Source: Planctomycetota bacterium
GTDB lineage: Bacteria; Planctomycetota; GCA-002687715; CAIWVZ01
Assembly: GCA_044222185.1 (NCBI GenBank)
Contig: JBGANV010000002.1
Span: forward strand, 224,001-288,000
DNA length: 64,000 nt
Direction of reading: 5' to 3'
Made by a program: the position numbers and the translations under genes. The stretch's first letter is position 1, and the number at the start of each line of letters is the position of its first letter. The notes below the pieces were generated by a model, which was not told the origin of the DNA, did no database searches, and worked only from the letters and a program-made list of their open reading frames with translations. Positions 5,734 through 59,551 of this stretch are shown in pieces.

Positions 5734-6897
5734 TCACCGCGTGGCGTGCGACGGAAGCGCCTGGGCGCCGAACCCGCGCGCGGGCCCTGATTCGTCGACG
5801 CGGAAGTCCAGGTTCTCCGCGCCTCGGAACCGGGGATCCTCGCCGCCGACCGGTCGCGTCTCGGTCATGGGGAGCGACGGAATCGAGCGGGCCGGGGCAT
5901 CGATGCAAAACCAGAAGTTGTCGGCGAACTCGAAGGTCTCGGGCGCCGTGTGGGGGCCGACGTTCACGACCGTTCGCACCTCGGACTGCCGGTAGGCGAC
6001 GAGGTTGTTCGCAAAGACTCCCTTCCTGCAGGGGACGAAGTCCTTGGCGACCGTCTCCTGGAGGATCCGAATCACCCACTTCGCCGGACGGTGGAACGTG
6101 TTCCAACGCACGGTGGAGCCGTCGACTCCCACGAAGGCGATGGGCGCCATCGAGCCGGTGAACGTGCAACCCTCAACCGTGACGTCCTTCGCCTCGAACC
6201 CCTCGGGCCTGGGACGGAACCACGGAAGTCCCGTGGATCCCCCGATGTTCACGGCGCGCTGTCCCGCGTCCTCGAACCGGCACGAGCGGATCGTGATGCC
6301 GGAGGACCCGCCCTTCGCCTGGACTCCCGTAGCCGCCGAATCCGTCGCCCTGTCGCGGAACGTGCAACCGACGAGCGTTCCACGATGGCACCCGACCATG
6401 TCGACGGCCGATCCTCCCCGACCCCACCGGTCGACGGTGCAGCGCTCGAGGCGGAAGTCGTCGACTCCCGAGAGCTTGATGCCGTCGTCGTTTCCGCGGC
6501 CACCGCAATCGCGAACGATGACCCCCGTGAGCGTGACGTGATGCGAAGGAGTGTCGAACGTTCCTCCGTCATCGACGTTCAAGCCGTTCCCGGATGCGCC
6601 CTCGAACACCACGTCCTCGAGCCGGAAGTGTTCGACGTCGGACACGTGCACGCTCCCGCGGATGCGGGGTGGCGCCTTTGGGTCCGCGGCAGCCACCGCG
6701 ATCGCCCGCTCCGCGGTGCCGCGCAGGTTGGCGACCCGGAATCCGTCGTAGTCGCCGGGTGCCATGAGCACGCGCGTGCCCGGTCTGCACGCAGCGAGGG
6801 CGCGCGTGAGCTCCGCCGTGTTCGAGACCCGCACGTCTCCGTCCTGCGGAACGGCCAGGGCGGCGGCCACCGCACACACGACCATCGGGGCAATCAT
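5734..6897 (-). CDS. Secreted right-handed parallel beta-helix protein (pectate-lyase-like fold)
   Basis: Signal peptide, ELTRALAACRPGTRVLMAPGDY, and repeated beta-helix strands (DGIKLSGVDDF, AVDMVGCH, GVQAKGGS, AVNIGGSTG). Confidence 0.8.
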   Translation of the reverse strand: MIAPMVVCAVAAALAVPQDGDVRVSNTAELTRALAACRPGTRVLMAPGDYDGFRVANLRGTAERAIAVAAADPKAPPRIRGSVHVSDVEHFRLEDVVFEGASGNGLNVDDGGTFDTPSHHVTLTGVIVRDCGGRGNDDGIKLSGVDDFRLERCTVDRWGRGGSAVDMVGCHRGTLVGCTFRDRATDSAATGVQAKGGSSGITIRSCRFEDAGQRAVNIGGSTGLPWFRPRPEGFEAKDVTVEGCTFTGSMAPIAFVGVDGSTVRWNTFHRPAKWVIRILQETVAKDFVPCRKGVFANNLVAYRQSEVRTVVNVGPHTAPETFEFADNFWFCIDAPARSIPSLPMTETRPVGGEDPRFRGAENLDFRVDESGPARGFGAQALPSHATR

Positions 6898-6985
6898 GGG
6901 CGCAGGTTACCCCGAGGAAGGCGGTGGTCACGTTCTCGCTCGGCGCGGGAACCAAGGGCACCGGGTCTCCTCGCCGCGCCGCGAC

Positions 6986-8026
6986 TCAAAACTGATATTC
7001 GAGGCCGACCAGGCCCAGGATGTCGAGCCGCTCGGTGTTGGGCGGCGGATCGCCCTGGTAGTTCAGCTCCAGCGAGGTCCGCATGCGGATGGACTCGGAG
7101 ATGGGCACGGTGAAGATGGAACGCGCCTTCGCCAGGTAACGGCCCGGATCGTCGAACGGGACGAGGATTTCGAAGTCCTGTTCGAAGTGGAGGTCGGTGA
7201 AGAACACGTCCTTGTAGACGGTGGCCGCGCGTCCTGCGGGCGAGATGTCGGTGCTGCGACCTGCGCCCTTCTCGTAGATGCCGGCGATACCACCTTCCAC
7301 CGACCAATTGCGGTCGGGGCCTTCGCTCCACAGGACGTCACCGACACCGACGTTGAGGATGGCACGCACGTCGATGTTCTGGATCTCGTCGTGAAGCGCT
7401 TCGGCGCTCGCGTAGGTGTAGAGCGTGGCGTCGTAGAAGTGATCGAGTCGCGCCTTCCCACCGAACGACGACGCCGTGAGGTTGCCGTCGGTCTTGCCGT
7501 AGAGGACGTCTGCGGCAAGAGACACCTTGTCCGCGTCCCAGCTCTTCTCCGCTTCGGCGTGAAGTGCGGCGAGCACCGAATCCACGTTGCCCTGACGAAC
7601 CGTGCCTGAGAGCGCAACCTTGCCCTTCCAATCGCCGGCCGTCAGCGGTGGCTTGTTTGGATCGGGTGGCGCGTCCTTCTTCGGGGGCGGAGGCGGCGCC
7701 GCCAGAGCGCCGATGGGGATCTGCAACGCACCGAACGACCCGACCTCGATGGCGAGCTGGTCGCCGTTTCGTCCGCGGATGGTGCCAGTGATCTGGTCCC
7801 CGTTTGCGAGCGAGAGCTTGATCGGCTGCGTGACACGGACGTTCGCGACGGCCGCCCATGGGGTCCGCGTCTTCCCCCCGCCTACGGCCTCGATTTCCAC
7901 GCCCTCAGCGTCGATGGCGACGACGCGGCCGGTGACCACCGATCCGCCGGCGACCGCCACCTCGTCCGTCTGTCCGAACAAGCAGGCGCTGATCGCGATC
8001 ACCGCCACGCAGAGCTTTCCCTTCAC
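6986..8026 (-). CDS. DUF481/YdiY-family outer-membrane beta-barrel protein
   Basis: GTG at 8026 with a GGAGG RBS and a signal peptide. N-terminal L.NGDQITG motif, amphipathic strands (WKGKVALSG...GNVD), and a C-terminal aromatic ending GLEYQF. Confidence 0.85.
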   Translation of the reverse strand: MKGKLCVAVIAISACLFGQTDEVAVAGGSVVTGRVVAIDAEGVEIEAVGGGKTRTPWAAVANVRVTQPIKLSLANGDQITGTIRGRNGDQLAIEVGSFGALQIPIGALAAPPPPPKKDAPPDPNKPPLTAGDWKGKVALSGTVRQGNVDSVLAALHAEAEKSWDADKVSLAADVLYGKTDGNLTASSFGGKARLDHFYDATLYTYASAEALHDEIQNIDVRAILNVGVGDVLWSEGPDRNWSVEGGIAGIYEKGAGRSTDISPAGRAATVYKDVFFTDLHFEQDFEILVPFDDPGRYLAKARSIFTVPISESIRMRTSLELNYQGDPPPNTERLDILGLVGLEYQF

Positions 8027-8134
8027 GCGAACCTCCGATCCGGCGCAGGAATCGCTCCGACCGAGCGCCGATGGGTCGGAGCTTACAACACGTCGAGACA
8101 TCCGTCCCCGCGTCAGGTGATTACACTGGTCGCC

Positions 8135-9445
8135 ATGACAACGCTCATGCCACGCGTCGCTGTCTGTTGCCTGCTCGCCGCCACGCTCGCCTCACGCGCA
8201 CCGAGCCAGTGGGTGATGGTCGTCAACAACACCTTCCTGAATGCGCCGAACGGCTCGAGCATCGCACTGGTCAACCGATCCAACGGCTCGCTCGTCACGC
8301 GCAACTGGATCGTCCCGGGGACGGGCGCCGGCAACTGGAACGGCAACTGCTCGGCGCAGGACGTCGTGCAGGTCGGCAACCAGGTCTGGATCGGGAGCTC
8401 CAACTCCAACTGCGCGATCCCGGCCGCGATCTACATCTACGACGTCACCTTCAACGGCGCGGCGCCGCCCACGGCCACGTTCAACTCGGTGCGCTACCTC
8501 ACGCTCGCGGACGTCGGCGTCGCGTCGACGCAGCCGCGCGGGCTCTACTACGACGCGGCGGCGGGACGCGTTTACATGACCGACGGCAACGGCATCTTCG
8601 CGCTCGATCCGTCGTGCAACTACGTGGGGCCGTCGCAGCCCGGCAACTGCTGGGGCGTGACGCAGCTGCGCGACGGAAGGATCGTGTATTCGGTCATCGG
8701 GAGTGGTGGCATCAAGGCGACGGATCCGTTGCTTGCGACGCCACCGACGACGCTCGTGTCACCTTCGTCCGCGGGATTCTGGCCCTACGAGCTCGACATC
8801 GCGAACGACGGGCGGCTGCTCGCGTCGGGGTTCGCGTCGACGGGCTACAACATCCGCGCCTGGAACGCCTCGGGCGGATTCCTCTCGGATCCCTATCCCG
8901 GAGCTGCCAACCTCCGCGGCATGGCCGTGCTCGAGAACGGCAACTACCTGCTCGCGCGCAACGCGTTCCCCTACGATCTCATCGTGTGGAACGGATCGAC
9001 GGCCTCCGTGATCATCGCCGACGGCGGGCCCAATTCGCCGGCGCAAAACCAGTTCGGGCCTTACATGATGGGCTACCTCGATCAGCCGACGCCCGCCGCC
9101 GTGACCATGTCGCAGCCCGGTGGCACGGGGACGTTCCTCCTCACCGCGTCGAACCTCGTCACCGGGGCCGACACCTACACGGTCGTGAGCTTCGAAGCAG
9201 CGCCAGGGGGACCGGGAACCGGGCCATACCTGGGGCTCTACACGGCCAATCTCAACAACCTCCTGTCGCAGGTGGCGTTGCCGGTCGGCTTCGAACCGTT
9301 CCACTTCGTGCCGAGTCGCGGCGCCTACGCGTTCGGGCCGCTGTCCGGTATTCCGTCGGGGCTCCACCTGGAGGTCATCACCGTCCAGCTCGTGAGCGGA
9401 ACGCTCGCGACCGTGACTCCGGTCTTCGCGTTGACGACGTCGTGA
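8135..9445 (+). CDS. Secreted beta-propeller-like protein with a C-terminal lineage-typical domain
   Basis: Signal peptide MTTLMPRVAVCCLLAATLASRAPSQ. Propeller-like blades (PRGLYYD, WGVTQLRDGRIVYS, RGMAVLENGNYLLA). C-terminal module GPYLGL...GIPSGLHLEV. Confidence 0.75.
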   Translation: MTTLMPRVAVCCLLAATLASRAPSQWVMVVNNTFLNAPNGSSIALVNRSNGSLVTRNWIVPGTGAGNWNGNCSAQDVVQVGNQVWIGSSNSNCAIPAAIYIYDVTFNGAAPPTATFNSVRYLTLADVGVASTQPRGLYYDAAAGRVYMTDGNGIFALDPSCNYVGPSQPGNCWGVTQLRDGRIVYSVIGSGGIKATDPLLATPPTTLVSPSSAGFWPYELDIANDGRLLASGFASTGYNIRAWNASGGFLSDPYPGAANLRGMAVLENGNYLLARNAFPYDLIVWNGSTASVIIADGGPNSPAQNQFGPYMMGYLDQPTPAAVTMSQPGGTGTFLLTASNLVTGADTYTVVSFEAAPGGPGTGPYLGLYTANLNNLLSQVALPVGFEPFHFVPSRGAYAFGPLSGIPSGLHLEVITVQLVSGTLATVTPVFALTTS

Positions 9446-48683: not shown

Positions 48684-49913
48684 TCACATCCCCGATGAGC
48701 CAGTTCGATCGGCGTTCGTGTCGGAACCGGCGGCTGATTCCCGCACGAGTTGATAGGCGTCGCGGAACGGCAGGCCCTTTTCCACGACGAGGCGATAGGC
48801 CTTCTCGGCGGCATGAAGCGAGGGATCGATGGCCGCGCGCGTCTTCTCCGGAACGAACGAAATGCCCGCGACGGCATGGGCGAGGAGGCGCGCCGTGTCG
48901 CGAACGGCGTCGAGTCCACGGAACAGCGGCGCTTTGATCAGCTGGTAGTCGCGGTGGTAGCCAGACGTCATCTTCGTGGTGATCTGCATCACCTCGAACA
49001 AGGCCGTGACGGCGACGGCCGTACGTCCTCGGGCCAGTTCGAAGAGATCCGGGTTGCGCTTCTGGGGAAGCATCGACGACCCGGTCGTGAAAGCGTGCGG
49101 GAGCTTCACGAACCCGAACTCGGACGTGTTGAACAAACAGAGGTCCGCCGAAAGACGTCCCAGGTCCTGGCCCAACAGGGCGGCTTCGAACAATGCGGAC
49201 GCCTCCGCCTTCCCACGGGACAGCTGCACGGCCGTGACGGGCTCGTGAACCTCGGCGAACCCGAGCGTGCGAGCGGTCATCTGGCGGTCGAGGGTCAGCA
49301 CGGGAACGCCGTAACCCGCCGCCGATCCCAGCGGGTTCTTGTCGGCGCGGCGTGCGGCGAGCGCCAGCCCGGCCGCATCGTCCCGGATCTCCGACGCGAA
49401 ACCCCCGGCCCACAGTGCGACCGTCGACGGCATGGCGCGCTGCATGTGCGTGTATCCAGGCAGCGCCACGGCCCCCTGCCGCACGACCAGTCCGTCCAGC
49501 GCTGCGGCGACGTCGTTCGCCTCGCGGGCGAGCTCCGCGAGCGCCGCCTTCAGGAACAGGCGCACGGCCGCAAGGACCTGGTCGTTCCGCGATCGACCGA
49601 GGTGGATGCGGCGACCAGCTTCGCCGACCGCGGCGACGAGCCGATTCTCGAGCGCCGTGTGGCAGTCCTCGTCGGAAAGCGTGACGTGCCACTCGCCGCG
49701 TGCGTGCGATGCGGCGATGTCCGCGAGTGCACGGCTCAGTTTCTCGAGGTCCTCCGCGCTCAAGTACCCGGCCGCATTCAGCATGTCCGCGTGCGCGGCC
49801 GAAGCCTCGGCATCGAACGACACCAGTCGCTCATCGAGAACGTGATCCTCGCCCGCGGTGTACCGCAGGACGAGATCGTCGAGAGCCTCACCGCGATCCC
49901 AGAGCCGCGTCAT
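48684..49913 (-). CDS. argH: Argininosuccinate lyase
   Basis: EDCHTALE, IHLGRSRNDQV, PGYTHMQRAMP, TGSSMLPQKRNPD, GYHRD. Start set at MTRLWDRG. Confidence 0.95.
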   Translation of the reverse strand: MTRLWDRGEALDDLVLRYTAGEDHVLDERLVSFDAEASAAHADMLNAAGYLSAEDLEKLSRALADIAASHARGEWHVTLSDEDCHTALENRLVAAVGEAGRRIHLGRSRNDQVLAAVRLFLKAALAELAREANDVAAALDGLVVRQGAVALPGYTHMQRAMPSTVALWAGGFASEIRDDAAGLALAARRADKNPLGSAAGYGVPVLTLDRQMTARTLGFAEVHEPVTAVQLSRGKAEASALFEAALLGQDLGRLSADLCLFNTSEFGFVKLPHAFTTGSSMLPQKRNPDLFELARGRTAVAVTALFEVMQITTKMTSGYHRDYQLIKAPLFRGLDAVRDTARLLAHAVAGISFVPEKTRAAIDPSLHAAEKAYRLVVEKGLPFRDAYQLVRESAAGSDTNADRTGSSGM

Positions 49914-50994
49914 CGCTTCGCTCCTGTCTCGCGAACTCGAGCGCGAGATGTTCATAGAAATGCGCACCCTCGATGATCTCCGATTCGAGGACGAATTCGT
50001 CGGGCGTGTGCGAACGCTCCGTCCTTCCCGGTCCGACCTTGATCGTGGGGATGCCTCGGAAGAACACCATGTCCGACAGCGTCCGCGATCCGAAAGTCTC
50101 GGATTCGGGGCGCGCGCGCCGCGCTGCCTGCACGAGGGGATGATCGGGACGGATCTCGCACGGCTTCAGCCGATCGGAGATCACGCGCACCTCCGCCGAA
50201 GTCGCCTGGCGCAGCCGTTGCACGAGAACCTCGTGCCCGGGCTCGGGATTGGTGCGGACGTCGAACACGCACGTGGCCTCGGCCGGGACCGTGTTGCGAG
50301 CCGATCCCGCGGCGAGGACCGTCGGCTCCGCCGTGACGTCACCGAGCATCTCGTGCGCCGAGCCCCAGTCGACGTCGTGGGTGCCGACGATGTCCGCGGC
50401 GAGGCGGCGGATCGGATTCTCGATCCCCAGCGTGCGCGCATTCGCGGCGTGACAGGCCTTCCCCGACCGCTTCAGCTCGACGATCAGGAGGCCCTTCTGC
50501 GCCACGGCGACGTCGAGCGCCGTCGGCTCTCCCACGACGGCCGCCGCCGGCGCGAGACCGCGATTGCGCAGCTCCGGCACGAGCATTTCGGCGCCCTTTC
50601 CCCCGGTCTCCTCCTCGCACGTCAACGCGAGCATCAACCGCACGTCGAGCGAGGCCTGGCGTTGCTGCAGTCGCAGGAACGCGGCGGTCATGGCGGCGAC
50701 CGAGGCCTTCGCGTCGTTGCTCCCCAGCCCGAAGACCTTGCCGTCTTCGGCGCGGACGTCGTAGGGATCACGTGTCCATGCGGGGGTCGGCGGCACGGTA
50801 TCGAGGTGACTGTTCATGCAGAGGATCGGCCCGCGGCCGATCATGGCGAAGACGTTGTCACCGACCCGGTGAACGTCGACCCCGCGCTCGCCGAGCCATC
50901 CCTGCACGAAATCGCAGATCGCGCGCTCCTGGTGAGAGACCGAGGGCGTCCTCACCAGCGCTCGATGGAATGCCAGAAGCTCCGCGTCGTTCAT
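49888..50994 (-). CDS. argE: M20 deacylase (N-acylornithine/N-acylcitrulline deacylase)
   Basis: NSHLDTV, GLGSNDAKAS, EEETGG, VGEPT and GPGRTERSHTPDE, located inside the arg operon. Confidence 0.88.
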   Translation of the reverse strand: MNDAELLAFHRALVRTPSVSHQERAICDFVQGWLGERGVDVHRVGDNVFAMIGRGPILCMNSHLDTVPPTPAWTRDPYDVRAEDGKVFGLGSNDAKASVAAMTAAFLRLQQRQASLDVRLMLALTCEEETGGKGAEMLVPELRNRGLAPAAAVVGEPTALDVAVAQKGLLIVELKRSGKACHAANARTLGIENPIRRLAADIVGTHDVDWGSAHEMLGDVTAEPTVLAAGSARNTVPAEATCVFDVRTNPEPGHEVLVQRLRQATSAEVRVISDRLKPCEIRPDHPLVQAARRARPESETFGSRTLSDMVFFRGIPTIKVGPGRTERSHTPDEFVLESEIIEGAHFYEHLALEFARQERSDDAALGSR

Positions 50995-51968
50995 CCCCGC
51001 GTGCTTTCGGCGGATTTCAGGATCGCTTCCACGCGACCGTTACCCGTCTGCTCGGCCGGAAGCAGGTCACGCATCTCCATGACGATGAGCGTCCCCGCGC
51101 CTTCGTTCGTGAAGATCTCGACGAGAAGACTGTCCGGACCACCTCCGATCACGTGAACCCGCTTCACACCGCCGTAGAGCGCCTCCTTCGCCGCGTTCGC
51201 CTTGGGAAGCATGCCCGCGTCGAGCGCGCCGCGCTCGAGCAGCGTGTTCAACCCACGCACGTCCGTGTACGAGATCAGCGAGGAGGGATCGTTCTTGTCC
51301 TCGAGGATGCCGGGGGCCTCCTGGAGGAACACGAGTTTCTCGGCGCCCATCTCCCGGGCAAGCGTGGCTGCAACCGTGTCGGCGTTGACGTTCAGGATGT
51401 TGCCCTGGTCGTCGGCGGTGAGCGGGCTCACGACGGGCACGTACCCCGCGTCGAGCAGGCGCGTCAGCACGGACGCATCCACGGTGACGATGTCGCCCAC
51501 GTGACCGAAGTCGACGGTCGTGCGAACCTCGCCTGCGATCTTCACGCGCGGCGGGCGGCGGCGGGCGCGGATCAGCCCTGCATCGACTCCCGAGACTCCG
51601 ACGGTGGGCAGTCCCGCCGCGCGCGCCGCCGCGAGGATCGCCGTGTTGATGGCGCCGTTCATGGTCATGACGGCGACTTCGAGCGTCTTCTCGTCCGTCA
51701 CGCGCCGGCCGTCGACGAACAGGGTCTCGATGCCGAGCTTGGATGAGAGCGCGGTCGTCTGCGGCCCACCACCGTGGACGATGACGATGCGGACGCCGAG
51801 TTCTCGCAGGATGCTGACCTGCTCGGCGATGCTGCGCAGCCCGGCTGCGTCTCCACAAACGGCGCCGCCCATCTTCACGACGAACGTGCGGCCCTTGTAC
51901 AGGCGGATGTAGGGCAGTGCGCGCTTCAGCGCGTCCATCGTGGCGTTGCGATCATGAACCGAACTCAT
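50991..51968 (-). CDS. argB: N-acylglutamate kinase
   Basis: ALPYIRLYKGRTFVVKMGG, IVHGGGPQ, GRRVTD, NVNADTVA, GMLPK and EIFTNEGAGT. AAAGGA RBS before ATG 51968. Confidence 0.95.
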   Translation of the reverse strand: MSSVHDRNATMDALKRALPYIRLYKGRTFVVKMGGAVCGDAAGLRSIAEQVSILRELGVRIVIVHGGGPQTTALSSKLGIETLFVDGRRVTDEKTLEVAVMTMNGAINTAILAAARAAGLPTVGVSGVDAGLIRARRRPPRVKIAGEVRTTVDFGHVGDIVTVDASVLTRLLDAGYVPVVSPLTADDQGNILNVNADTVAATLAREMGAEKLVFLQEAPGILEDKNDPSSLISYTDVRGLNTLLERGALDAGMLPKANAAKEALYGGVKRVHVIGGGPDSLLVEIFTNEGAGTLIVMEMRDLLPAEQTGNGRVEAILKSAESTRG

Positions 51969-52058
51969 GGGTGTTCCTTTCCGCGGCCCCGAACAGGGGC
52001 ACCTGAATCTGTGCTTCGAGCGAACCAACGGCTTCCATCGCGCGCACCGGGCTGGGGG

Positions 52059-53075
52059 TCACGTGCTCCACTCCGGACGCGTCAGCATTTCATGAAGAAG
52101 GGCCTTCTGCGCATGCAGGCGGTTGCCCGCCTGCCGCACGACGATGCTTCGCGGCCCATCGAGAACCTGATCCGTCACCTTCACGTTGCGTCGAACGGGG
52201 AGGCAGTGCATGAACTTCGCGCCCGGCGCCGACTCGGCGAACCACGGCTCGTCGACGCACCAGCCCTTGAGCGGGGCGCGAAGGGCCGCCTCCTCCGCGT
52301 TCTGGCCGTAGCGCGACGGCGCCGTCCACGACTTGGTGTAGAGGACGTGCGCGCCCCGCATCGCGGCGCGGCGGTCGTCGGTCTCCTGCACCGAACCGCC
52401 GGAGGCGAGCGCGAGCGCACGGGCGTCGGCCATCACCTCATCCGGAAGGGCGAAGCCCTCGGGACGAAGCACCGTGACGTTCATTCCGCGCCGCGCCGCC
52501 ATGCGCACCGTCGACGACGCGACGGCGAGGGGCAGCTGCTTGGGATGCCACGCCCACGACAGCACGAACTTCCCGCCCTGCGCCGGAATCCCAACGTCGT
52601 CCAGGGTCTTCCAGTCGGCGAGCGACTGGCACGGATGCGTGATGGCGGATTCGAGGTTGATGAACGGGCGGGGTGAGAGCTCGGCCATGGCGTGGATCAC
52701 GGGATCGGCCAGATCCTCCGCCAGATCCTTGCCGCGGGCGAAGCACCGCGCCGCGAGGACGTCGCAGTACTGCGACAGAACGGGTACGGCCTCGCGGATG
52801 TGCTCCGCGGCGTCGCCGTCCATCACGACGCCACGACGCGTCTCGAGCTGCCAGGACCCCTGGCCCGGTGTGATCACGAACGACCCGCCGCCGAGCTGGA
52901 CGATCGCCGCCTGCATGGAGGCGAGCGTGCGCAGCGACGGATTCATGAACAGGAGTCCGACGACGCGATTGCGCCCGACGTCGCTGCGAGGCGCGCGCTC
53001 GAGCGCCTGCGCGCGTGCAAGCACCGCCGCCAGCTCATCCCGATCGAGATCCGATAGATCGATGAACTTCTTCAC
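52059..53075 (-). CDS. argF: N-acyl-L-ornithine carbamoyltransferase (ArgF' family: AOTCase/SOTCase)
   Basis: FMNPSLRT, MDGDAAEH, INLESAITHPCQ, SWAWHPKQLP and HCLPVRRN. These are signature insertions of ArgF', not canonical OTCase. Confidence 0.92.
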   Translation of the reverse strand: MKKFIDLSDLDRDELAAVLARAQALERAPRSDVGRNRVVGLLFMNPSLRTLASMQAAIVQLGGGSFVITPGQGSWQLETRRGVVMDGDAAEHIREAVPVLSQYCDVLAARCFARGKDLAEDLADPVIHAMAELSPRPFINLESAITHPCQSLADWKTLDDVGIPAQGGKFVLSWAWHPKQLPLAVASSTVRMAARRGMNVTVLRPEGFALPDEVMADARALALASGGSVQETDDRRAAMRGAHVLYTKSWTAPSRYGQNAEEAALRAPLKGWCVDEPWFAESAPGAKFMHCLPVRRNVKVTDQVLDGPRSIVVRQAGNRLHAQKALLHEMLTRPEWST

Positions 53076-54241
53076 GCCGGGATTTCCTTCAACGCCGCGA
53101 GCAAGCGATCGACGTGATCGTCCTCGAGGATCAACGGGGGGAGCAGACGCACGATGTTCGGGTCGTTGGCACCGCCGGCGAGGATGCCGCGCTTGCGCAG
53201 CTCGCCGAGTATCTCCTTGGCCGGCCGCTTCGTGCGCAGACCGAGCAGATAGCCCATGCCCTGCGTCGCGACGACGGGACCACCGATCGACTCGGAGAGG
53301 ATCCGCTTCGAGAGGCGACGCACCCGAGGCAGGAGCTGCTCCTCATCGATCGTGCGCAGCACGACGTCGACGAGCGCGCACGCCAGGGGCCCACCGCCGA
53401 ACGTCGTGCCGAGGTCGCCCTTCTTGACGATCGACGCGAGCGCATCGCCGAGCATCACGGCTGCCACCGGGAACCCGCCCGCGAGCCCCTTGGCGGTCGC
53501 GAGGATGTCCGGCGTGACGCCGTACCCTTGCGCCGCGAACGGGTACCCGCTTCGTCCGACTCCGCACTGCACCTCGTCGAAGATCAGGACCGCGCCGCGC
53601 TGGCGCGTGATTTCACGTGAGGCGTGCACGAATTCCTGGGAGAGCGAACGAGCGCCGGCGAGGCCCTGCACGGGCTCGAAGATCACGGCCGCCACGTCGT
53701 CGCCCACCGCCTCGTCGAGACCATGAACGTCGTCGAGGTCGACCGTCGTCGTCGCGAACGGCTTGTTCGGGAAGGCGTACCAGGCCTGGTTGCCATCCGT
53801 GATCGCCGCGGCGGCGGCCGTCCGTCCGTGGAATGCACCCTTCAACGCGACGACGCGCGGGCGCTTCGTCGCCAGGAACGCGACGCGAAGCGCGTTCTCG
53901 ATGGCCTCGGCGCCGGAATTCACGAAGAAGACCTTGGAGAATCCCGCCGGTCCGAAATTGATGAGCGCCGTCGCGGCCTTCTGGCGTACGGCGAGGTCGA
54001 CGGCGTTGGTCTGGAAGAACAACCTCCGGGCCTGCGCATCGAGCGTCGCGCAGAGCTTCGGATGGTCGTATCCCAGAAGCGCCACGGCGTGACCTCCATA
54101 GAAGTCCAGGTAGCGGCGCCCGTCGCGGGCCGTGATCCACACACCCTCGCCGCTGACGGGTTCCACGTCGATCTGGTGGAAGACGTCCAGCAGCGCCGAT
54201 GCCTTCGCGGGTTCCTTCTCCATTTGCGTTCCTGTCGTCAT
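53072..54241 (-). CDS. argD: N-acylornithine aminotransferase (class III PLP)
   Basis: YLDFYGGHAV, NSGAEAIENA, FHGRT, EPVQG, DEVQCGVGRSG, TAKGLAGGFP and GTTFGGGP. Confidence 0.93.
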   Translation of the reverse strand: MTTGTQMEKEPAKASALLDVFHQIDVEPVSGEGVWITARDGRRYLDFYGGHAVALLGYDHPKLCATLDAQARRLFFQTNAVDLAVRQKAATALINFGPAGFSKVFFVNSGAEAIENALRVAFLATKRPRVVALKGAFHGRTAAAAAITDGNQAWYAFPNKPFATTTVDLDDVHGLDEAVGDDVAAVIFEPVQGLAGARSLSQEFVHASREITRQRGAVLIFDEVQCGVGRSGYPFAAQGYGVTPDILATAKGLAGGFPVAAVMLGDALASIVKKGDLGTTFGGGPLACALVDVVLRTIDEEQLLPRVRRLSKRILSESIGGPVVATQGMGYLLGLRTKRPAKEILGELRKRGILAGGANDPNIVRLLPPLILEDDHVDRLLAALKEIPA

Positions 54242-54248
54242 GTCTCTC

Positions 54249-55325
54249 TCAAGCCCAACCGAGGCCGGGCAGTTTCAAACCGCACGAGTCGTCCAGGTCG
54301 AACAGCCTGTTCATCCACTGCACTCCGCCACCAGCCGCGCCCTTCGTCAGGTTGTCCACGACGGACGTGACGACGAGCGTTCGACCCCTCGTCGCGACAC
54401 CGATGCGAACGCGATTGGTACCGACGACCTCCGTGAGCTTGGGCGCAATCGTGCTGGCGCGGACGAAGCCCTCGCCATAGAACGCGTTGACCGCCGACGC
54501 GAGGTCCTTCGCATTCGCATCGCGCTTCAGCGTCATCCTGAGCGTCGCGTGGATGCCGCGCACGAAGGGGCCGGAGTGCGGCACGAACTGCACGTCCGGC
54601 TCCGCACCGGGACGCGCCGCGCCGATCAGCATGCGCATCTCGGCTTCGTGCCGGTGCCCGAGCGGGTTGTACGCGTACAGGTTCCCGCTGCGCTCCGGGT
54701 GATGGGTGTTCTGCGCCGGCGTGCGGCCACTTCCGGAGCTTCCCGTCACGGCGGCCACGAAGACGTCGGCCTCGACGAGGTCTGCGGCGAAGAACGGAAA
54801 GGCCGCGACGGTCACCGCCGTGGTGAAGCAGCCGGGCTGCGTCGCGTGTGCCGGCGGTCTCCCGCGGAAGTGCTCGGGCACGGCGCAGACGAACTGAGGC
54901 AGTCGCCCCGGGGCCTCGTGCTCGTGGGCGTAGATGGCCGCATACCGCGCGGGATCTCGGAAGCGGAAGTCCGCGGACAGATCCACGGCCTTCGCGTCCG
55001 CTCGCGCCGCTTCGGCTGCGGACAACACACGGTCGGCGAGCGACGCCGTGGCGCCGTGCGGCGTGGCGAAGAACAGTCCCACGGGCCTGCCCGAATGGAA
55101 CAGGGACGCGTGCTCGTCCTGCGACCGGAACGTCAGCCCGTCGACGGTCGTGCCGGCGAGATGGGGAAACGACGCCGTCACGGATTCGCCGCCCTGGGAT
55201 GTCGAGAACACGGCCGCGACACGGAAGCGCGGATGCAGCGAGAGGATCCGCAGCAGCTCGCCGGCCACGTAGCCCTGTCCACCGAACACGGCGACGTCGA
55301 TGAGTTCGCGGTCAGGCGCCGTCAC
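54249..55325 (-). CDS. argC: N-acyl-gamma-glutamyl-phosphate reductase
   Basis: GGQGYVAGELLRIL, DLSADFR, catalytic PGCFTTA, TGSSGSG, HRHEAE and DNLTKGAAG. Confidence 0.95.
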   Translation of the reverse strand: MTAPDRELIDVAVFGGQGYVAGELLRILSLHPRFRVAAVFSTSQGGESVTASFPHLAGTTVDGLTFRSQDEHASLFHSGRPVGLFFATPHGATASLADRVLSAAEAARADAKAVDLSADFRFRDPARYAAIYAHEHEAPGRLPQFVCAVPEHFRGRPPAHATQPGCFTTAVTVAAFPFFAADLVEADVFVAAVTGSSGSGRTPAQNTHHPERSGNLYAYNPLGHRHEAEMRMLIGAARPGAEPDVQFVPHSGPFVRGIHATLRMTLKRDANAKDLASAVNAFYGEGFVRASTIAPKLTEVVGTNRVRIGVATRGRTLVVTSVVDNLTKGAAGGGVQWMNRLFDLDDSCGLKLPGLGWA

Positions 55326-56406
55326 CCGAGCCTCCCAGGTTCTGGACCGAAGCCACCGACTTCATGGCCGACGTGCCGAGCACGACGGTGACGAGGCCGG
55401 GCGCATCCGACCGAGCGTTGTGAGCGGGCGTAGACGTTTCGCGTTCGACGAGCTTGGTGCCCGCGCTGTTGTCCGTCGCTGGACCGGTGACGACGGTCGT
55501 TTGGAGATCGTGGCGCTCGCGGAGCAGCCGCACGCCGCCCCACGCCGCCACCGGGTCGTTCGCCGCGAGCACGACGGCGCTGAACGTCTTGCGAACGGGC
55601 ACGTCGTCGAGAATGGCGTCGACTCCGTAGAGCCCCAGAAGTCCGTCACCCAGCTCGAGGACGATGACGTCCGGGCGCTCCGCGGCGAGCTTCGTGAGCA
55701 GCGTGCGCGCGGCACGGGGCGCGGACTCGGCGGTCGTCGTGACGATGCCGAGATCGGTGAAGATCATGGTGCGACGGGCGCCCGCATCCTCCATCGCCAG
55801 GATGTCACGACGAAGCGACACGCCCGTGGTCTTGCCCGCGGCGACGCGGAATCCGCGATGCGTGAGCTCCTGAACGAGCGCGCACGCCGCGGCCGTCTTG
55901 CCGGCGTTCATGCACGACCCGACGACGGCGATCACGGGAATGCCCTGGACGTCCAGGCGATCTTCGAGGTGAATGGCGCCCTGTGTGATGTGCGCCGGCA
56001 CTCCGATGCGCTCGCCGAGGTAGGGGAAATGGAGAACCTGCCCCAGCACCTCGCAGACGAAGGGCTGGCCGAGATCGGGGTTGACGCTGTCGCAGATCCC
56101 GATGACGCCGCCGAGGTTCAGGATGTTCACCTTGTCGCCCGGCTTCAGCGATTCGGGAAGGTGACCCGAATAGCCGAAAAGCGCCTTGCGGTGTCCCAAC
56201 GCGCCGGCGACGACGTCGCCCGGTTTGATCTGCGAGAAGCGGCCCGACGGCAGCTCGAGCTGGTTGTAGGTGCTCTTCGACGTCAACACGCGAATGGCGA
56301 CGACGCTCCCTTCCGTGCACGTGATGTCCGCGGAGACGCGGACTTCGCGCGACAGCTTGCAGTTCATCGTCACCGAACCGATCTTGTCGATCAGGATCGT
56401 CTTCAC
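55312..56406 (-). CDS. DUF1611/DgcN-related P-loop protein; candidate non-canonical N-acylglutamate synthase
   Basis: The GTG start overlaps the argG stop (GTGA) and the 3' end overlaps argC. Motifs VVGSCMNAGKT, AGKTTG and IVLELGDGLLG resemble DUF1611-type P-loop proteins. The function is inferred from context. Confidence 0.75.
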   Translation of the reverse strand: MKTILIDKIGSVTMNCKLSREVRVSADITCTEGSVVAIRVLTSKSTYNQLELPSGRFSQIKPGDVVAGALGHRKALFGYSGHLPESLKPGDKVNILNLGGVIGICDSVNPDLGQPFVCEVLGQVLHFPYLGERIGVPAHITQGAIHLEDRLDVQGIPVIAVVGSCMNAGKTAAACALVQELTHRGFRVAAGKTTGVSLRRDILAMEDAGARRTMIFTDLGIVTTTAESAPRAARTLLTKLAAERPDVIVLELGDGLLGLYGVDAILDDVPVRKTFSAVVLAANDPVAAWGGVRLLRERHDLQTTVVTGPATDNSAGTKLVERETSTPAHNARSDAPGLVTVVLGTSAMKSVASVQNLGGSGDGA

Positions 56407-57608
56407 GCCTGCGCTCCCTTCGCCCGTTGATGCAACATCCCGGGCAGCGCCAGAAGCCGCGAGAACCCGCGGGCATCGCTGGCCGTCCATTCACCCGTCG
56501 CCTCGCCGTACACGCCGCGGGATGCGGCCTTGAGCGAGTGGGGCGACGCCACTCCCTCCACGAAGCACGAGCCGGTGCGCAGACGGAACGTCACGGTGCC
56601 CGTCACGCGCTCCTGCGAACGAATGAACAGCGCTTCGGCATCGCGGCAGGCGGGTTCGAGGAATTGCCCTTCGTGGATCCAATCGCCGTAGATGGCGGCG
56701 ACCGTGTCCTTCAAACGCTGCTGGCGGCCGGTGAGCGTGAGTTTCTCCAGCTCGCGGTGCGTTTGGATGAGGATCGACGCGGCGGGCGCCTCGAACGCCA
56801 CACGGCCCTTGAGGCCGAAGATCGTGTCACCCAGGTGGATCCCGCGGCCGACGCCGAACGGCGCCGCGAGCGCGTCCAGTCGTTCCACGAGCGGAACGGC
56901 GCTCAATCGCGTGCCGTCGACCGCCATGGGAACGCCGGCGTCGAAGGAGACGGTGTGCACCTCCGATGCACGCGGCCGATCGAAGGCGCCGCGCGTCAGC
57001 ACCCACGCATCCTCGGGGAGCGTGGCGATGGTGTCCGTCGTCTCCTTCCCGCCGATCGTGCAGCCCCACAATCCGCGGTTGACCGAGTACGCGGCCTTCT
57101 CGGCGTTCACGGGATAGCCGTGGGATTGGAGGAACTTCACCTCCTGCTCCCGTGACAGGCCCAGGTCGCGAATGGGCGCGATGATGTCGAGTTCCGGAGC
57201 GAGTGTCCGCAATGCGACCTCGAACCGGACCTGGTCGTTGCCCGCCGCGGTGCATCCGTGCGCGATGGCTTTCGCGCCGAGCTGTCGCGCGACGTCAGCG
57301 ACGACCCGGGCCTGGAGTCCGCGCTCGGCGCCGACGCACAGCGGATACATGTTGCCCCGCAGCACGTTGCCCATGACGAGAAACCGGAGCGTTTCGTTGA
57401 AGAACGACTCGCGTCCATCCACGAGGATGTGTTTCTTCGCACCGAGCGCATTCGACTTGCGCTCGAGTTCGCGGCGCGCGTCGTCATCGAGGCCGCCCGT
57501 GTCCACGGTGACGGTGATGACGTCCGTGCTGTATTGCTCCTTCAGCCAGGGCACGCAGTACGACGTGTCGAGCCCGCCGCTGAAGGCGAGGACGATCGGA
57601 TCACTCAT
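56403..57608 (-). CDS. argG: Argininosuccinate synthase (Bacteroidota-like type)
   Basis: VLAFSGGLDTS, YPLCVGAER, HGCTAAGNDQVRF, YSVNRGLWG and GDTIFGLKGRVAFEAP. Confidence 0.96.
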   Translation of the reverse strand: MSDPIVLAFSGGLDTSYCVPWLKEQYSTDVITVTVDTGGLDDDARRELERKSNALGAKKHILVDGRESFFNETLRFLVMGNVLRGNMYPLCVGAERGLQARVVADVARQLGAKAIAHGCTAAGNDQVRFEVALRTLAPELDIIAPIRDLGLSREQEVKFLQSHGYPVNAEKAAYSVNRGLWGCTIGGKETTDTIATLPEDAWVLTRGAFDRPRASEVHTVSFDAGVPMAVDGTRLSAVPLVERLDALAAPFGVGRGIHLGDTIFGLKGRVAFEAPAASILIQTHRELEKLTLTGRQQRLKDTVAAIYGDWIHEGQFLEPACRDAEALFIRSQERVTGTVTFRLRTGSCFVEGVASPHSLKAASRGVYGEATGEWTASDARGFSRLLALPGMLHQRAKGAQA

Positions 57609-58074
57609 CGGTTCTCTTCTCCATCCACTGCTGGAGCCGCGCGTGCACGATGGCCTGATCGCGTCGGCTCTGAGTGGCAACGAACAACGTGTCGTCGCCG
57701 GCGACCGTGCCGACGACCTCGCTCCAACGTGCGTTGTCGACCGCGAGGCCGACGGCGGAGGCGCCTCCCGGCGTCGTCTGGACGACGAGGAGATGCGGAC
57801 CCGCAACCTTCACGGCGACGACGTGGCCGAAGACATCGGCTCCGTCCGTCGTCGCGGGCGGTGTCAGCCCGAGCTGATCGGGCAGGATGTAATGGCCGTC
57901 CACCTTCGCGACGCGCATCTCGCGAAGATCGCGTGAAACGCTCGACTGGGTGGCCGAGAGGCCCAGCTGTCGCAGACGCGCCAGCAGCTCCGTCTGGTTC
58001 GCGATGGATTCATCACGAAGCAGCGTGCGGATTGCAGCTTGTCGCTCTTGCCAGATCTCGGCCTTGACGGGCAT
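57601..58074 (-). CDS. argR: Arginine repressor
   Basis: RQAAIRTLL...NQTELLARL...ATQSSVSRDLREM and arginine-binding GTVAGDDTLFV. Confidence 0.96.
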   Translation of the reverse strand: MPVKAEIWQERQAAIRTLLRDESIANQTELLARLRQLGLSATQSSVSRDLREMRVAKVDGHYILPDQLGLTPPATTDGADVFGHVVAVKVAGPHLLVVQTTPGGASAVGLAVDNARWSEVVGTVAGDDTLFVATQSRRDQAIVHARLQQWMEKRTDE

Positions 58075-58137
58075 GGCGCACCCTGGCCCAAACAGCCGCG
58101 GCCCGCAGGACCGTCCCGCGGGCCGTGCTGAAACATG

Positions 58138-58171
58138 CGCATGTTGATACGAAGATGCGCATAAACATCCA
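58138..58171 (-). promoter_or_regulatory. Tandem ARG-box-like operator upstream of argR
   Basis: Minus-strand TGGATGTTTATGCG (58171-58158) and CGTATCAACATGCG (58151-58138) are two TGCAT-N4-ATGCA-like half-sites at a 20-bp period. They sit in an AT-rich patch about 65-100 bp upstream of argR. Confidence 0.65.
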
Positions 58172-58203
58172 GCTCCCCCCGCGAGATTTTCTCGCCGCCG
58201 CTC

Positions 58204-59433
58204 GGAACGCCACGCTCGGCGTGGCCGGTTGGCGAGACCGCCGGGCTCTCAATCGCGGCGAGGTGGGCCGGACGACGCGCCCGCTCTGGCACCGCACGCG
58301 GCGGGTTCCCGGCAGGGCGGGAGCCCTGCCGTCCAGCCGCGTGAAACGCGGCGCTCCGGAACGCCACGCTCGGCGTGGCCAGTTGGCGAGACCGCCGGGC
58401 TCGCCGGGGAATCGCCCGCGAGGTCTCAATCGCGGCGAGGTGGGCCGGACGACGCGCCCGCTCTGGCATCGCACGCGGCGGGTTCCCGGCAGGGCCGGAG
58501 CCCTGCCGTCCAGCCGCGTGAAACGCGGCGCTCCGGAGCGCCACGCTCGGCGTGGCCGGTTGGCGAGACCTCCGGGCTCGCCGGGGAATCGCCCGCGAGG
58601 TCTCGATCGCGGCGAGGTGTGCCGGACGACGCGCCCGCTCTGGCATCGCACGCGGCGAGTTCCCGGCAGGGCGGGAGCCCTGCCGTCCAGCCGCGTGAAA
58701 CGCGGCGCTCCGGAACGCCACGCTCCGCGTGGCCGGTTGGCGAGACCGCCGGGCTCGCCGGGGAATCACCCACGAGGTCTCAATCGCGGCGAGGTTGCCG
58801 CGCGACGCGCCCGCTCTGGCATCGCACTCGGCGGGTTCCCGGCAGGGCGGGAGCCCTGCCATCCAGCCGCGTGAAACGCGGCGCTCCGGAACGCCACGCT
58901 CGGCGTGGCCGGTTGGCGAGACCTCCGGGCTCGCCGGGGAATCGCCCGCGAGGTCTCAATCGCGGCGAGGTTGCCGCGCGACGCGCCCGCTCTGGCATCG
59001 CACGCGGCGAGTTCCCGGCAGGGCGGGAGCCCTGCCGTCCAGCCGCGTGAAACGCGGCGCTCCGGAACGCCACGCTCCGCGTGGCCGGTTGGCGAGACCT
59101 CCGGGCTGCCGGGGAATCGCCCGCGAGGTCTCAATCGCGGCTGCCGCGCGACGCGCCCGCTCTGGCATCGCACGCGGCGGTTCCCGGCAGGGCGGGACGA
59201 GCCGCGTGGTCTCGGAACGCCACGCTCCGCGTGGTTGGCGAGACCGCCGGGCTCGCCGGGGATCGCCCGCGAGGTCTCGATCGCGGCGAGGTGGGCCGGA
59301 CGACGCGCCCGCGCTGGCATCGCACGCGGCGGGTTCCCGGCAGGGCTGGAGCCCTGCCGTCCAGCCGCGTGAAACGCGGCGCTCCGGAACGCCACGCTCC
59401 GCGTGGCCGGTCGGCGAGACCGCCGGGCTCGCC
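58204..59433 (+). repeat. Tandem array (~7 copies, mostly 176-177-bp period) of the multi-hairpin REP/BIME-like element
   Basis: The GGCAGGGC-N4-GCCCTGCC stem starts at 58311, 58488, 58665, 58841, 59017, 59186 (degenerate) and 59339. Units are near-identical with no unique spacers. Confidence 0.93.
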
Positions 59434-59551
59434 GAGATTGACGGCCGGCGCCGCACCAGCGCCGGCGGAGTCAGCCTCGGGCGCGGTCATTGCACGCGGC
59501 GGTCCGGAACCTGGACAGCTCTCGGCTGTTCTGTTGCAGTGAGACTGCCTT

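Follow-up and report, generated by a model that had tools for sequence, protein, structure and literature searches.

The window analysed here, a stretch of 64,000 nucleotides from a Planctomycetota bacterium (assembly GCA_044222185.1, contig JBGANV010000002.1, positions 224,001 to 288,000), carries on its minus strand an arginine biosynthesis operon with the order argG-X-argC-argD-argF'-argB-M20-argH, as read from Pfam and NCBIfam assignments. The second gene, referred to here as X, encodes a protein of 364 amino acids which matches no Pfam or NCBIfam family over its cut-off, and which quite probably makes the N-acylated (succinylated) glutamate from which the pathway starts, be it by transfer from coenzyme A (CoA) or by ATP-dependent ligation. 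The gene and its parts are the following:

55312..56406, minus strand: gene X, a stop-free frame of 364 amino acids; predicted N-succinyl-L-glutamate synthase of a non-GNAT type, probably in the family of Steroidobacter ACG33_RS14135
55957..56406, minus strand: N-terminal domain of X, residues 1 to about 150; predicted to be all-beta (AlphaFold2 models), with S11 and R73 invariant
55372..55944, minus strand: C-terminal SIMIBI-type P-loop domain of X, residues about 155-345, assigned from VIA-align Z values
55894..55920, minus strand: extended Walker A motif GSCMNAGKT of X, residues 163-171; aligns with the P-loop of BioD

Both junctions of X overlap the neighbouring genes. X starts with a GTG whose TG also belongs to the TGA that ends argG (GTGA), and which follows the Shine-Dalgarno-like run AAGGGAG; at the other end the GTG of argC, at 55325, gives a 14-nucleotide overlap with the end of X and has GGGAGG ahead of it. 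The coupled 364-residue frame between argG and argC described in the original prediction is thus real, and lies on the minus strand, which had been left unstated. An alternative frame starting with ATG (55312-56490, 392 amino acids) is unlikely because each of the 20 aligned homologs with a preserved N-terminus starts at the MK(T/S) position. The translation contains GSCMNAGKT (163-171), AAGKTTGVS (190-198) and LELGDG (250-255), in which the three motifs reported earlier (GSCMNAGKT, GKTTG and LELGDG) are all found. GNAT, ArgJ and amino-acid-kinase domains were not detected in X with Pfam, nor were the first two with NCBIfam, in agreement with the reported lack of GNAT motifs. The best Pfam matches below threshold are MobB (24.6 bits, cut-off 26.6) and DUF1611 (PF07755; 15.7 bits over 38 residues, cut-off 25).

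The genes surrounding X on the same strand were identified as follows:

56403..57611, minus strand: argG, argininosuccinate synthase (TIGR00032, 304.8 bits, cut-off 268.2); its stop overlaps the start of X
54249..55325, minus strand: argC (TIGR01850, 264 bits, cut-off 233.6); its start overlaps the end of X by 14 nucleotides
53072..54241, minus strand: argD, class-III N-acylornithine aminotransferase (Aminotran_3, E 3.2e-87; argD-type NCBIfam matches all below cut-off)
52059..53075, minus strand: argF', knotted N-acylornithine carbamoyltransferase (NF003384, 381.6 bits), with A90 and P182 of succinyl type and K299 of acetyl type
50991..52028, minus strand: argB, N-acylglutamate kinase (TIGR00761, 218.8 bits; in Pfam AA_kinase only), start codon uncertain
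49888..50994, minus strand: M20 deacylase, candidate N-acylcitrulline hydrolase, argE-like (Peptidase_M20 and M20_dimer; ArgE/DapE NCBIfam models below cut-off)
48684..49967, minus strand: argH, argininosuccinate lyase (TIGR00838, 285.8 bits, cut-off 279.5)

Pfam detects no acetyltransferase domain fused to argB. Since all the flanking genes can be named with Pfam and NCBIfam, X is the sole unassigned gene of the operon and glutamate N-acylation is the sole step without a gene, exactly as the original prediction had it.

X belongs to a large family, and its relatives recur in the same genetic context. More than 7,466 homologs were counted among 8,000 scored candidates, and a search against 1.84 billion representatives at 50% identity yielded 1,449 clusters at E<=1e-3, 923 at E<=1e-10 and 190 at E<=1e-30; X is therefore far beyond a chance frame. 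The best 120 homologs are 69-82% identical to X (the window's own protein, 100%), and those with a named source are all called "hypothetical". In contigs from one genome per species, 449 stretches encode a relative of X, and 80 of these 449 loci were kept and compared with the window by tblastn of its eight operon proteins. These 80 loci span the Planctomycetota, the Myxococcota/"Deltaproteobacteria", the Eisenbacteria, the Acidobacteriota (mostly Thermoanaerobaculia) and the Steroidobacteraceae/Woeseiaceae, with X identities of 58-82% across the five phyla. The order argG-X-argC-argD-argF'-argB-(M20)-argH is conserved nearly everywhere: argC adjoins X in 69 of the 71 loci having at least 900 nucleotides downstream (the two exceptions keep arg genes further downstream), argG does so in 63/80, and an arg gene of some kind adjoins X in 78/80, the exceptions being L050 and L070. 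The same holds for more divergent homologs, argG being adjacent to all ten X homologs sampled at 40-62% identity in a separate sample of Planctomycetota genomes. The linkage of homologs to arg genes, on which the earlier assignment depended, is thus clearly present.

The distribution of X is complementary to that of a known first enzyme of the pathway. In a sample of 151 Planctomycetota genomes, X is found in 51 (E<=1e-60) and ArgJ, over its cut-off, in 64, with no genome encoding both and 36 encoding neither; classical ArgA exceeds its cut-off in a single genome, which has ArgJ and lacks X. Likewise, X (E<=1e-40) is found in 29 and ArgJ in 28 of 121 Acidobacteriota genomes, again never together, and 64 have neither; two of the X-bearing Acidobacteriota genomes are unpublished, and without them the count is 27/119. 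The anti-correlation that had been anticipated is therefore observed for ArgJ, which occurs in 0/51 and 0/29 of the X-bearing genomes, and the sole ArgA match of the Planctomycetota sample is in a genome devoid of X. Two families of Planctomycetota (f8 and f20) each comprise two genomes with X and two with ArgJ, and because each of them mixes both types, the exchange between X and ArgJ happened more than once. The source genome itself conforms to this pattern: in its assembly (7.08 Mb, 93.8% complete) the ArgJ model has no match, and the only match of the ArgA model TIGR01890, which is below cut-off, is to the kinase portion of argB. Neither of these two enzymes was thus found where the original prediction had expected them to be absent; the Bacteroides-type GNAT synthase, which it had also named, was outside this check.

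The nature of the acyl group is suggested by the carbamoyltransferase encoded three genes downstream of X. Among PDB sequences, ArgF' is closest to 3l02, the E92A mutant of the Xanthomonas N-acetylornithine carbamoyltransferase, and the alignment places Ala90 of ArgF' at E92. Substitution of E92 by A, P, S or V switches the Xanthomonas enzyme to N-succinylornithine (Shi et al. 2007, as cited in GapMind Appendix 2, bioRxiv). The marker residues given in the review PMC4581275 are E92, N185 and K302 for N-acetylornithine carbamoyltransferases and A/S/P/V/Q, P and V/I/E for N-succinylornithine carbamoyltransferases. With A90, P182 and K299, the enzyme of the window is of succinyl type at two of these three positions. 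In the ArgF' proteins encoded beside X homologs, the position of E92 is occupied by A in 46, S in five and V in four (55/55 scored), and the marker triples in 54 loci are APV (32), APA (10), SPV (5), VPK (3), APK (3) and VAK (1). Because the markers are mostly of succinyl type both in the window and in its relatives, the arginine intermediates are likely to be succinylated. The operon slot, the non-overlap with ArgJ and this ArgF' residue together lend support to the earlier claim that X supplies N-acylglutamate, probably N-succinylglutamate.

The family label given to X in the original prediction, a DUF1611/DgcN-like protein, was not supported by comparison and overstates what is a general likeness among P-loop proteins. 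DgcN (7XRJ) is a DUF1611 protein described in GapMind Appendix 2 as an acetyl-CoA-dependent D-glutamate N-acetyltransferase. The AlphaFold2 model of X, built with 21 homologs (mean predicted local distance difference test, pLDDT, 85.5), consists of an all-beta N-domain and an alpha/beta P-loop C-domain. In a Foldseek search of the PDB with the full model, signal recognition particle GTPases, BioD and HypB came out on top (E ~1e-7), and 7XRJ was not among the matches listed. Re-alignment of the Foldseek top 1,000 with VIA gave Z 17.4 for 2obn, 17.1 for the CTP synthase 4zdj, 16.7 for 2g0t, 16.0 for DgcN 7xrj and 15.9 for the BioD 3of5; these matches cover the C-domain only and are effectively tied. 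DgcN superposes on the C-domain of X with a root-mean-square deviation of 2.9 over 183 residues, and the DUF1611 structures overall with 2.6-2.9 over 179-183 residues. The structural match to DgcN that had been foreseen thus exists for the C-domain, but because CTP synthase and BioD tie with it, the likeness is not specific to DUF1611. Modelled alone (pLDDT 73.6), the N-domain has no solved relative among 48,161 chains (best Z 3.5), a conclusion limited by the moderate confidence of the model.

Sequence profiles lead to the same view. The weak profile match to DUF1611 extends from the P-loop through Walker B, and PF17396, the Rossmann-like DUF1611_N domain, has no match in X, whose N-domain is predicted to be all-beta and is of no known fold. 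The motifs differ as well, ELGDG in X corresponding to EGQGS in DUF1611 and AGKTTG to ATGQTG. Among 42 diverse members of the X family, the Pfam matches, all below threshold, are to CbiA (22), MobB (21), DUF1611 (19, best E 2.8e-4) and AAA_26 (5). With hhalign, the X family gave 77.7% (E 1.9e-5) against the DUF1611 protein of the source genome from a shallow alignment and 38.5% (E 3.3e-4) from a diverse one, over about 90-100 residues between the P-loop and Walker B; the N-domain of the genome's own PyrG reached 2%. By these profiles and models, X is best described as a family of its own within the SIMIBI class of P-loop proteins rather than as a member of DUF1611, which is only narrowly its closest relative.

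The source genome does encode a genuine DUF1611 protein. This protein has both DUF1611_N (PF17396, 84.6 bits) and DUF1611_C (197.8 bits for DUF1611), and is homologous to 2g0t, 2obn and 7xrj (E 6.9e-26 for the latter). Its gene (locus L002, G000:C7:41470-45066; open reading frame 1072-2142, plus strand) overlaps by four nucleotides an enolase-superfamily (MR_MLE) gene (2139-3203, plus strand), and judging from these sequences the two look like a DgcN-type pair for the acetylation and racemisation of D-glutamate. The partner of DgcN reportedly racemises N-acetyl-D-glutamate to the L form. It is thus conceivable that this pair supplies the arginine pathway with N-acetyl-L-glutamate by way of D-glutamate and that X does something else. 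We give this scenario hardly any credence: the ArgF' of the window has succinyl-type markers, and the lock-in of X to the arg operons of five phyla would be left unexplained.

The tie in fold also bears on the chemistry of X, since it brings in BioD and CTP synthase, which form C-N bonds at the expense of ATP. Ten residues are invariant in the 42 members, down to 27% identity (S11, R73, P84, G169, K170, T171, K192, A210, E251 and D284), and D201, D218, D246 and Y260 are nearly so. K192 is aligned to the Lys located after strand 2 in BioD and in the PyrG of the source genome, a position at which DUF1611 proteins have no Lys. Both this Lys and the one in the P-loop engage the phosphate that is transferred by BioD and CTP synthase. 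X resembles BioD and the amidoligase domain of CTP synthase in fold (Z 15-17), in the extended P-loop GxxxxxGKT and in having acidic residues where strands 3 and 4 end. It may therefore be asked whether X is an ATP-dependent succinate:L-glutamate ligase of the BioD/CTP-synthase/CobQ type, which would convert free succinate to an acyl phosphate and couple it to the amino group of L-glutamate, dispensing with acyl-CoA. The invariance of K170, T171 and E251 and the near-invariance of D218 are in line with such an activity, as are the ranks of CTP synthase (Z 17.1) and BioD (Z 15.9) beside the DUF1611 structures and the fact that CbiA is the commonest weak Pfam match (22/42 members). The only match of the 21-homolog profile among PDB sequences is likewise a dethiobiotin synthetase, BioD, although at E 0.09 this likeness is insignificant, as is the 2% obtained for PyrG with hhalign, a method that prefers DUF1611 (38.5-77.7%). 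None of the AAA_26, CTP_synth_N and CbiA models matches X significantly (CbiA in 22/42 and AAA_26 in 5/42 members, always below threshold), and X differs from BioD and CTP synthase by its extra N-terminal beta domain. Furthermore, the conservation of Lys and acidic residues is not diagnostic, because the P-loop Lys and the acidic positions are likewise retained in DUF1611 proteins, among them DgcN, a reported acetyltransferase. We know of no N-acyl-amino-acid ligase with a BioD/CTP-synthase fold, which counts against this possibility. A ligase mechanism is therefore a tentative alternative that we regard as rather unlikely, and to the same limited extent X might found a new class of enzymes forming N-acyl amino acids, in which a BioD/CTP-synthase-like P-loop domain with ligase activity is combined with a new beta domain. 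Were this to be true, arginine synthesis in several phyla would start without acyl-CoA. As a separate observation on this fold, the BioD-type model PF13500 has no match in the 93.8%-complete source genome, though 12/14 control genomes gave one.

The fate of the acyl group is another point at which the clusters differ. The M20 deacylase gene is present in the operon of most planctomycetal, acidobacterial and myxococcal loci, and no M20 gene was seen in the gammaproteobacterial clusters (L030, L033, L046-L053, L055-L078 and L080-L082), an absence that concerns the clusters only, the rest of these genomes being unsearched. In the Steroidobacteraceae/Woeseiaceae, the order argG-X-argC-(argD)-argF'-argB-argH without M20 is found at L030, L052, L053, L056-L058, L060-L062, L065, L067, L072, L075, L076, L080 and L081. 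Clusters of this kind would suit an ArgJ-like transacylase that takes the succinyl group off N-succinylcitrulline or N-succinylornithine and places it on glutamate, so that the acyl group is recycled; the exclusion of ArgJ by X in both phylum samples would fit as well, as would the statement in GapMind Appendix 2 that S. denitrificans has no recognisable ArgE. Such a role for X appears improbable, as the deacylase in the window and in most of the operons of the three phyla named above fits a linear pathway, and the P-loop fold does not suggest an acyl-enzyme transferase.

The proposal that a family of this kind opens the arginine pathway has already been published, and credit for the first-enzyme idea belongs to GapMind 2026 (PLoS Genet, Nov 2026, PMC13759103; bioRxiv 2024), which predicts ACG33_RS14135 of Steroidobacter to be an N-succinylglutamate synthase. 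The arguments given there and in the bioRxiv Appendix 2 are the conserved location in arg clusters, the lack of co-occurrence with ArgA homologs and the residue at ArgF' position 92, together with a weak Foldseek match of ACG33_RS14135 to DgcN 7XRJ (E 1.4e-7). The original prediction presented X as a new non-GNAT entry enzyme; this novelty is lost to GapMind, whose DgcN and ArgF' arguments are the same, and its own caution that the family might already be in print was well placed. X has several features of the GapMind family, namely its location in an arg cluster, a genome in which no ArgA or ArgJ was found and an Ala at ArgF' position 92. Both X and ACG33_RS14135 are hypothetical proteins of arg clusters from genomes without ArgA, with A, P, S or V at ArgF' position 92 and a remote likeness to DgcN; they differ in that X comes from another phylum and has an M20 deacylase in its operon, whereas S. 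denitrificans lacks a recognisable ArgE according to GapMind. Steroidobacteraceae proteins in the same arg slot are 58-61% identical to X over the full length. S. denitrificans is not among the source names in the best 120 matches to a Steroidobacteraceae homolog. The counts on the exclusion of ArgJ, the finding on the N-domain, the tie in fold and the GNAT survey appear to add somewhat to what GapMind reports.

The gene, its operon slot, its phyletic pattern and the ArgF' residue are observed, and from them we infer which reaction is catalysed and which acyl group and donor take part. On balance, and judging from these comparisons of sequences, we favour X as the first enzyme of the arginine pathway, a non-GNAT protein that would replace ArgA and ArgJ and make N-succinyl-L-glutamate by CoA-dependent transfer. 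In this scheme, X would acylate L-glutamate, probably from succinyl-CoA, and its product would then be processed by ArgB, ArgC, ArgD, the succinyl-type ArgF', the M20 deacylase, ArgG and ArgH. The pathway role inferred for X is the one held by ArgA (an amino-acid kinase plus GNAT protein), by ArgJ and by the GNAT N-succinylglutamate synthase of Bacteroidetes, from all of which it differs in its domains.

Several considerations weigh against this assignment. The link between X and a known acyltransferase is thin, as the likeness to DUF1611 is below threshold, covers about 90-100 residues around the P-loop and is shared with CTP synthase and BioD; the AGKTTG of X, moreover, stands where DUF1611 has ATGQTG. 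In ArgF', K299, the equivalent of K302, is of acetyl type, and an NCBIfam equivalog model names the protein N-acetylornithine carbamoyltransferase (381.6 bits, cut-off 288). With regard to this automatic name for 52059-53075, a mis-naming is likely, given Ala and Pro at two of the marker positions. The 36/151 Planctomycetota and 64/121 Acidobacteriota genomes with neither X nor ArgJ imply that other solutions exist, and as related genomes are not independent, the distribution counts are descriptive. The GapMind prediction for ACG33_RS14135 is listed in its table as not experimentally confirmed, and the identity of the X family with ACG33_RS14135 (A0A127FCT3) is deduced indirectly, from the 58-61% identity of the Steroidobacteraceae proteins in the same slot. 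Finally, the source genome has nine PF00583 GNAT genes elsewhere. None of them reaches the NCBIfam cut-off for an amino-acid N-acetyltransferase (best NF005921, 29.6 bits versus 180), and the only one over any NCBIfam cut-off is an ArsN1-type protein. This check narrows the option of a stand-alone GNAT synthase without closing it, as it covered PF00583 only, with the other GNAT families of Pfam and the Bacteroidetes-type enzyme unsearched. The NAT domain PF04768 also has no match in the source genome, a result that is uninformative since the control genomes are equally silent.

These GNAT genes are relevant to a last alternative, according to which X is a non-catalytic P-loop NTPase with a role in regulating or assembling the enzymes of arginine synthesis, the N-acylglutamate being made by an unrecognised GNAT elsewhere in the genome. 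The weak Pfam matches to NTPases of the MobB, CbiA and MinD types, among which adaptors without enzymatic activity are numerous, could be read in this way, and so could the occurrence of distant paralogs of X (24-33% identity) outside arg clusters. We nonetheless consider a non-catalytic X highly unlikely, since the strict exclusion of ArgJ in 80 X-bearing genomes is the pattern of a functional replacement rather than of an accessory protein, since no PF00583 gene of the genome reaches a synthase cut-off, and since a conserved extra N-domain with an invariant Ser and Arg is what would be expected of a substrate-binding module.

If the favoured activity of X is confirmed, a widespread family would account for the "missing argA" of the Planctomycetota, Acidobacteriota, Myxococcota, Eisenbacteria and Steroidobacteraceae/Woeseiaceae, and would represent a second, non-GNAT way to acylate glutamate. 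Confirmation would also correct the automated predictions of arginine auxotrophy in these groups, which are mostly uncultured.

The surroundings of the distant paralogs were examined in six genomes. They give no functional lead, because all of these paralogs lie away from arg genes and the genes around them vary. One of them (locus L086, G034:C10), in an ArgJ-negative planctomycete, is about 33% identical to X and overlaps an M20 peptidase gene at the stop of the latter (6090-7265 and 7262-8269, both on the plus strand), following an amidohydrolase gene, with no arg genes near it; this context hints that the wider X superfamily may act on other N-acyl amino acids. In the window itself, the region upstream of the arg operon (57864-59500) contains long repetitive frames on both strands.

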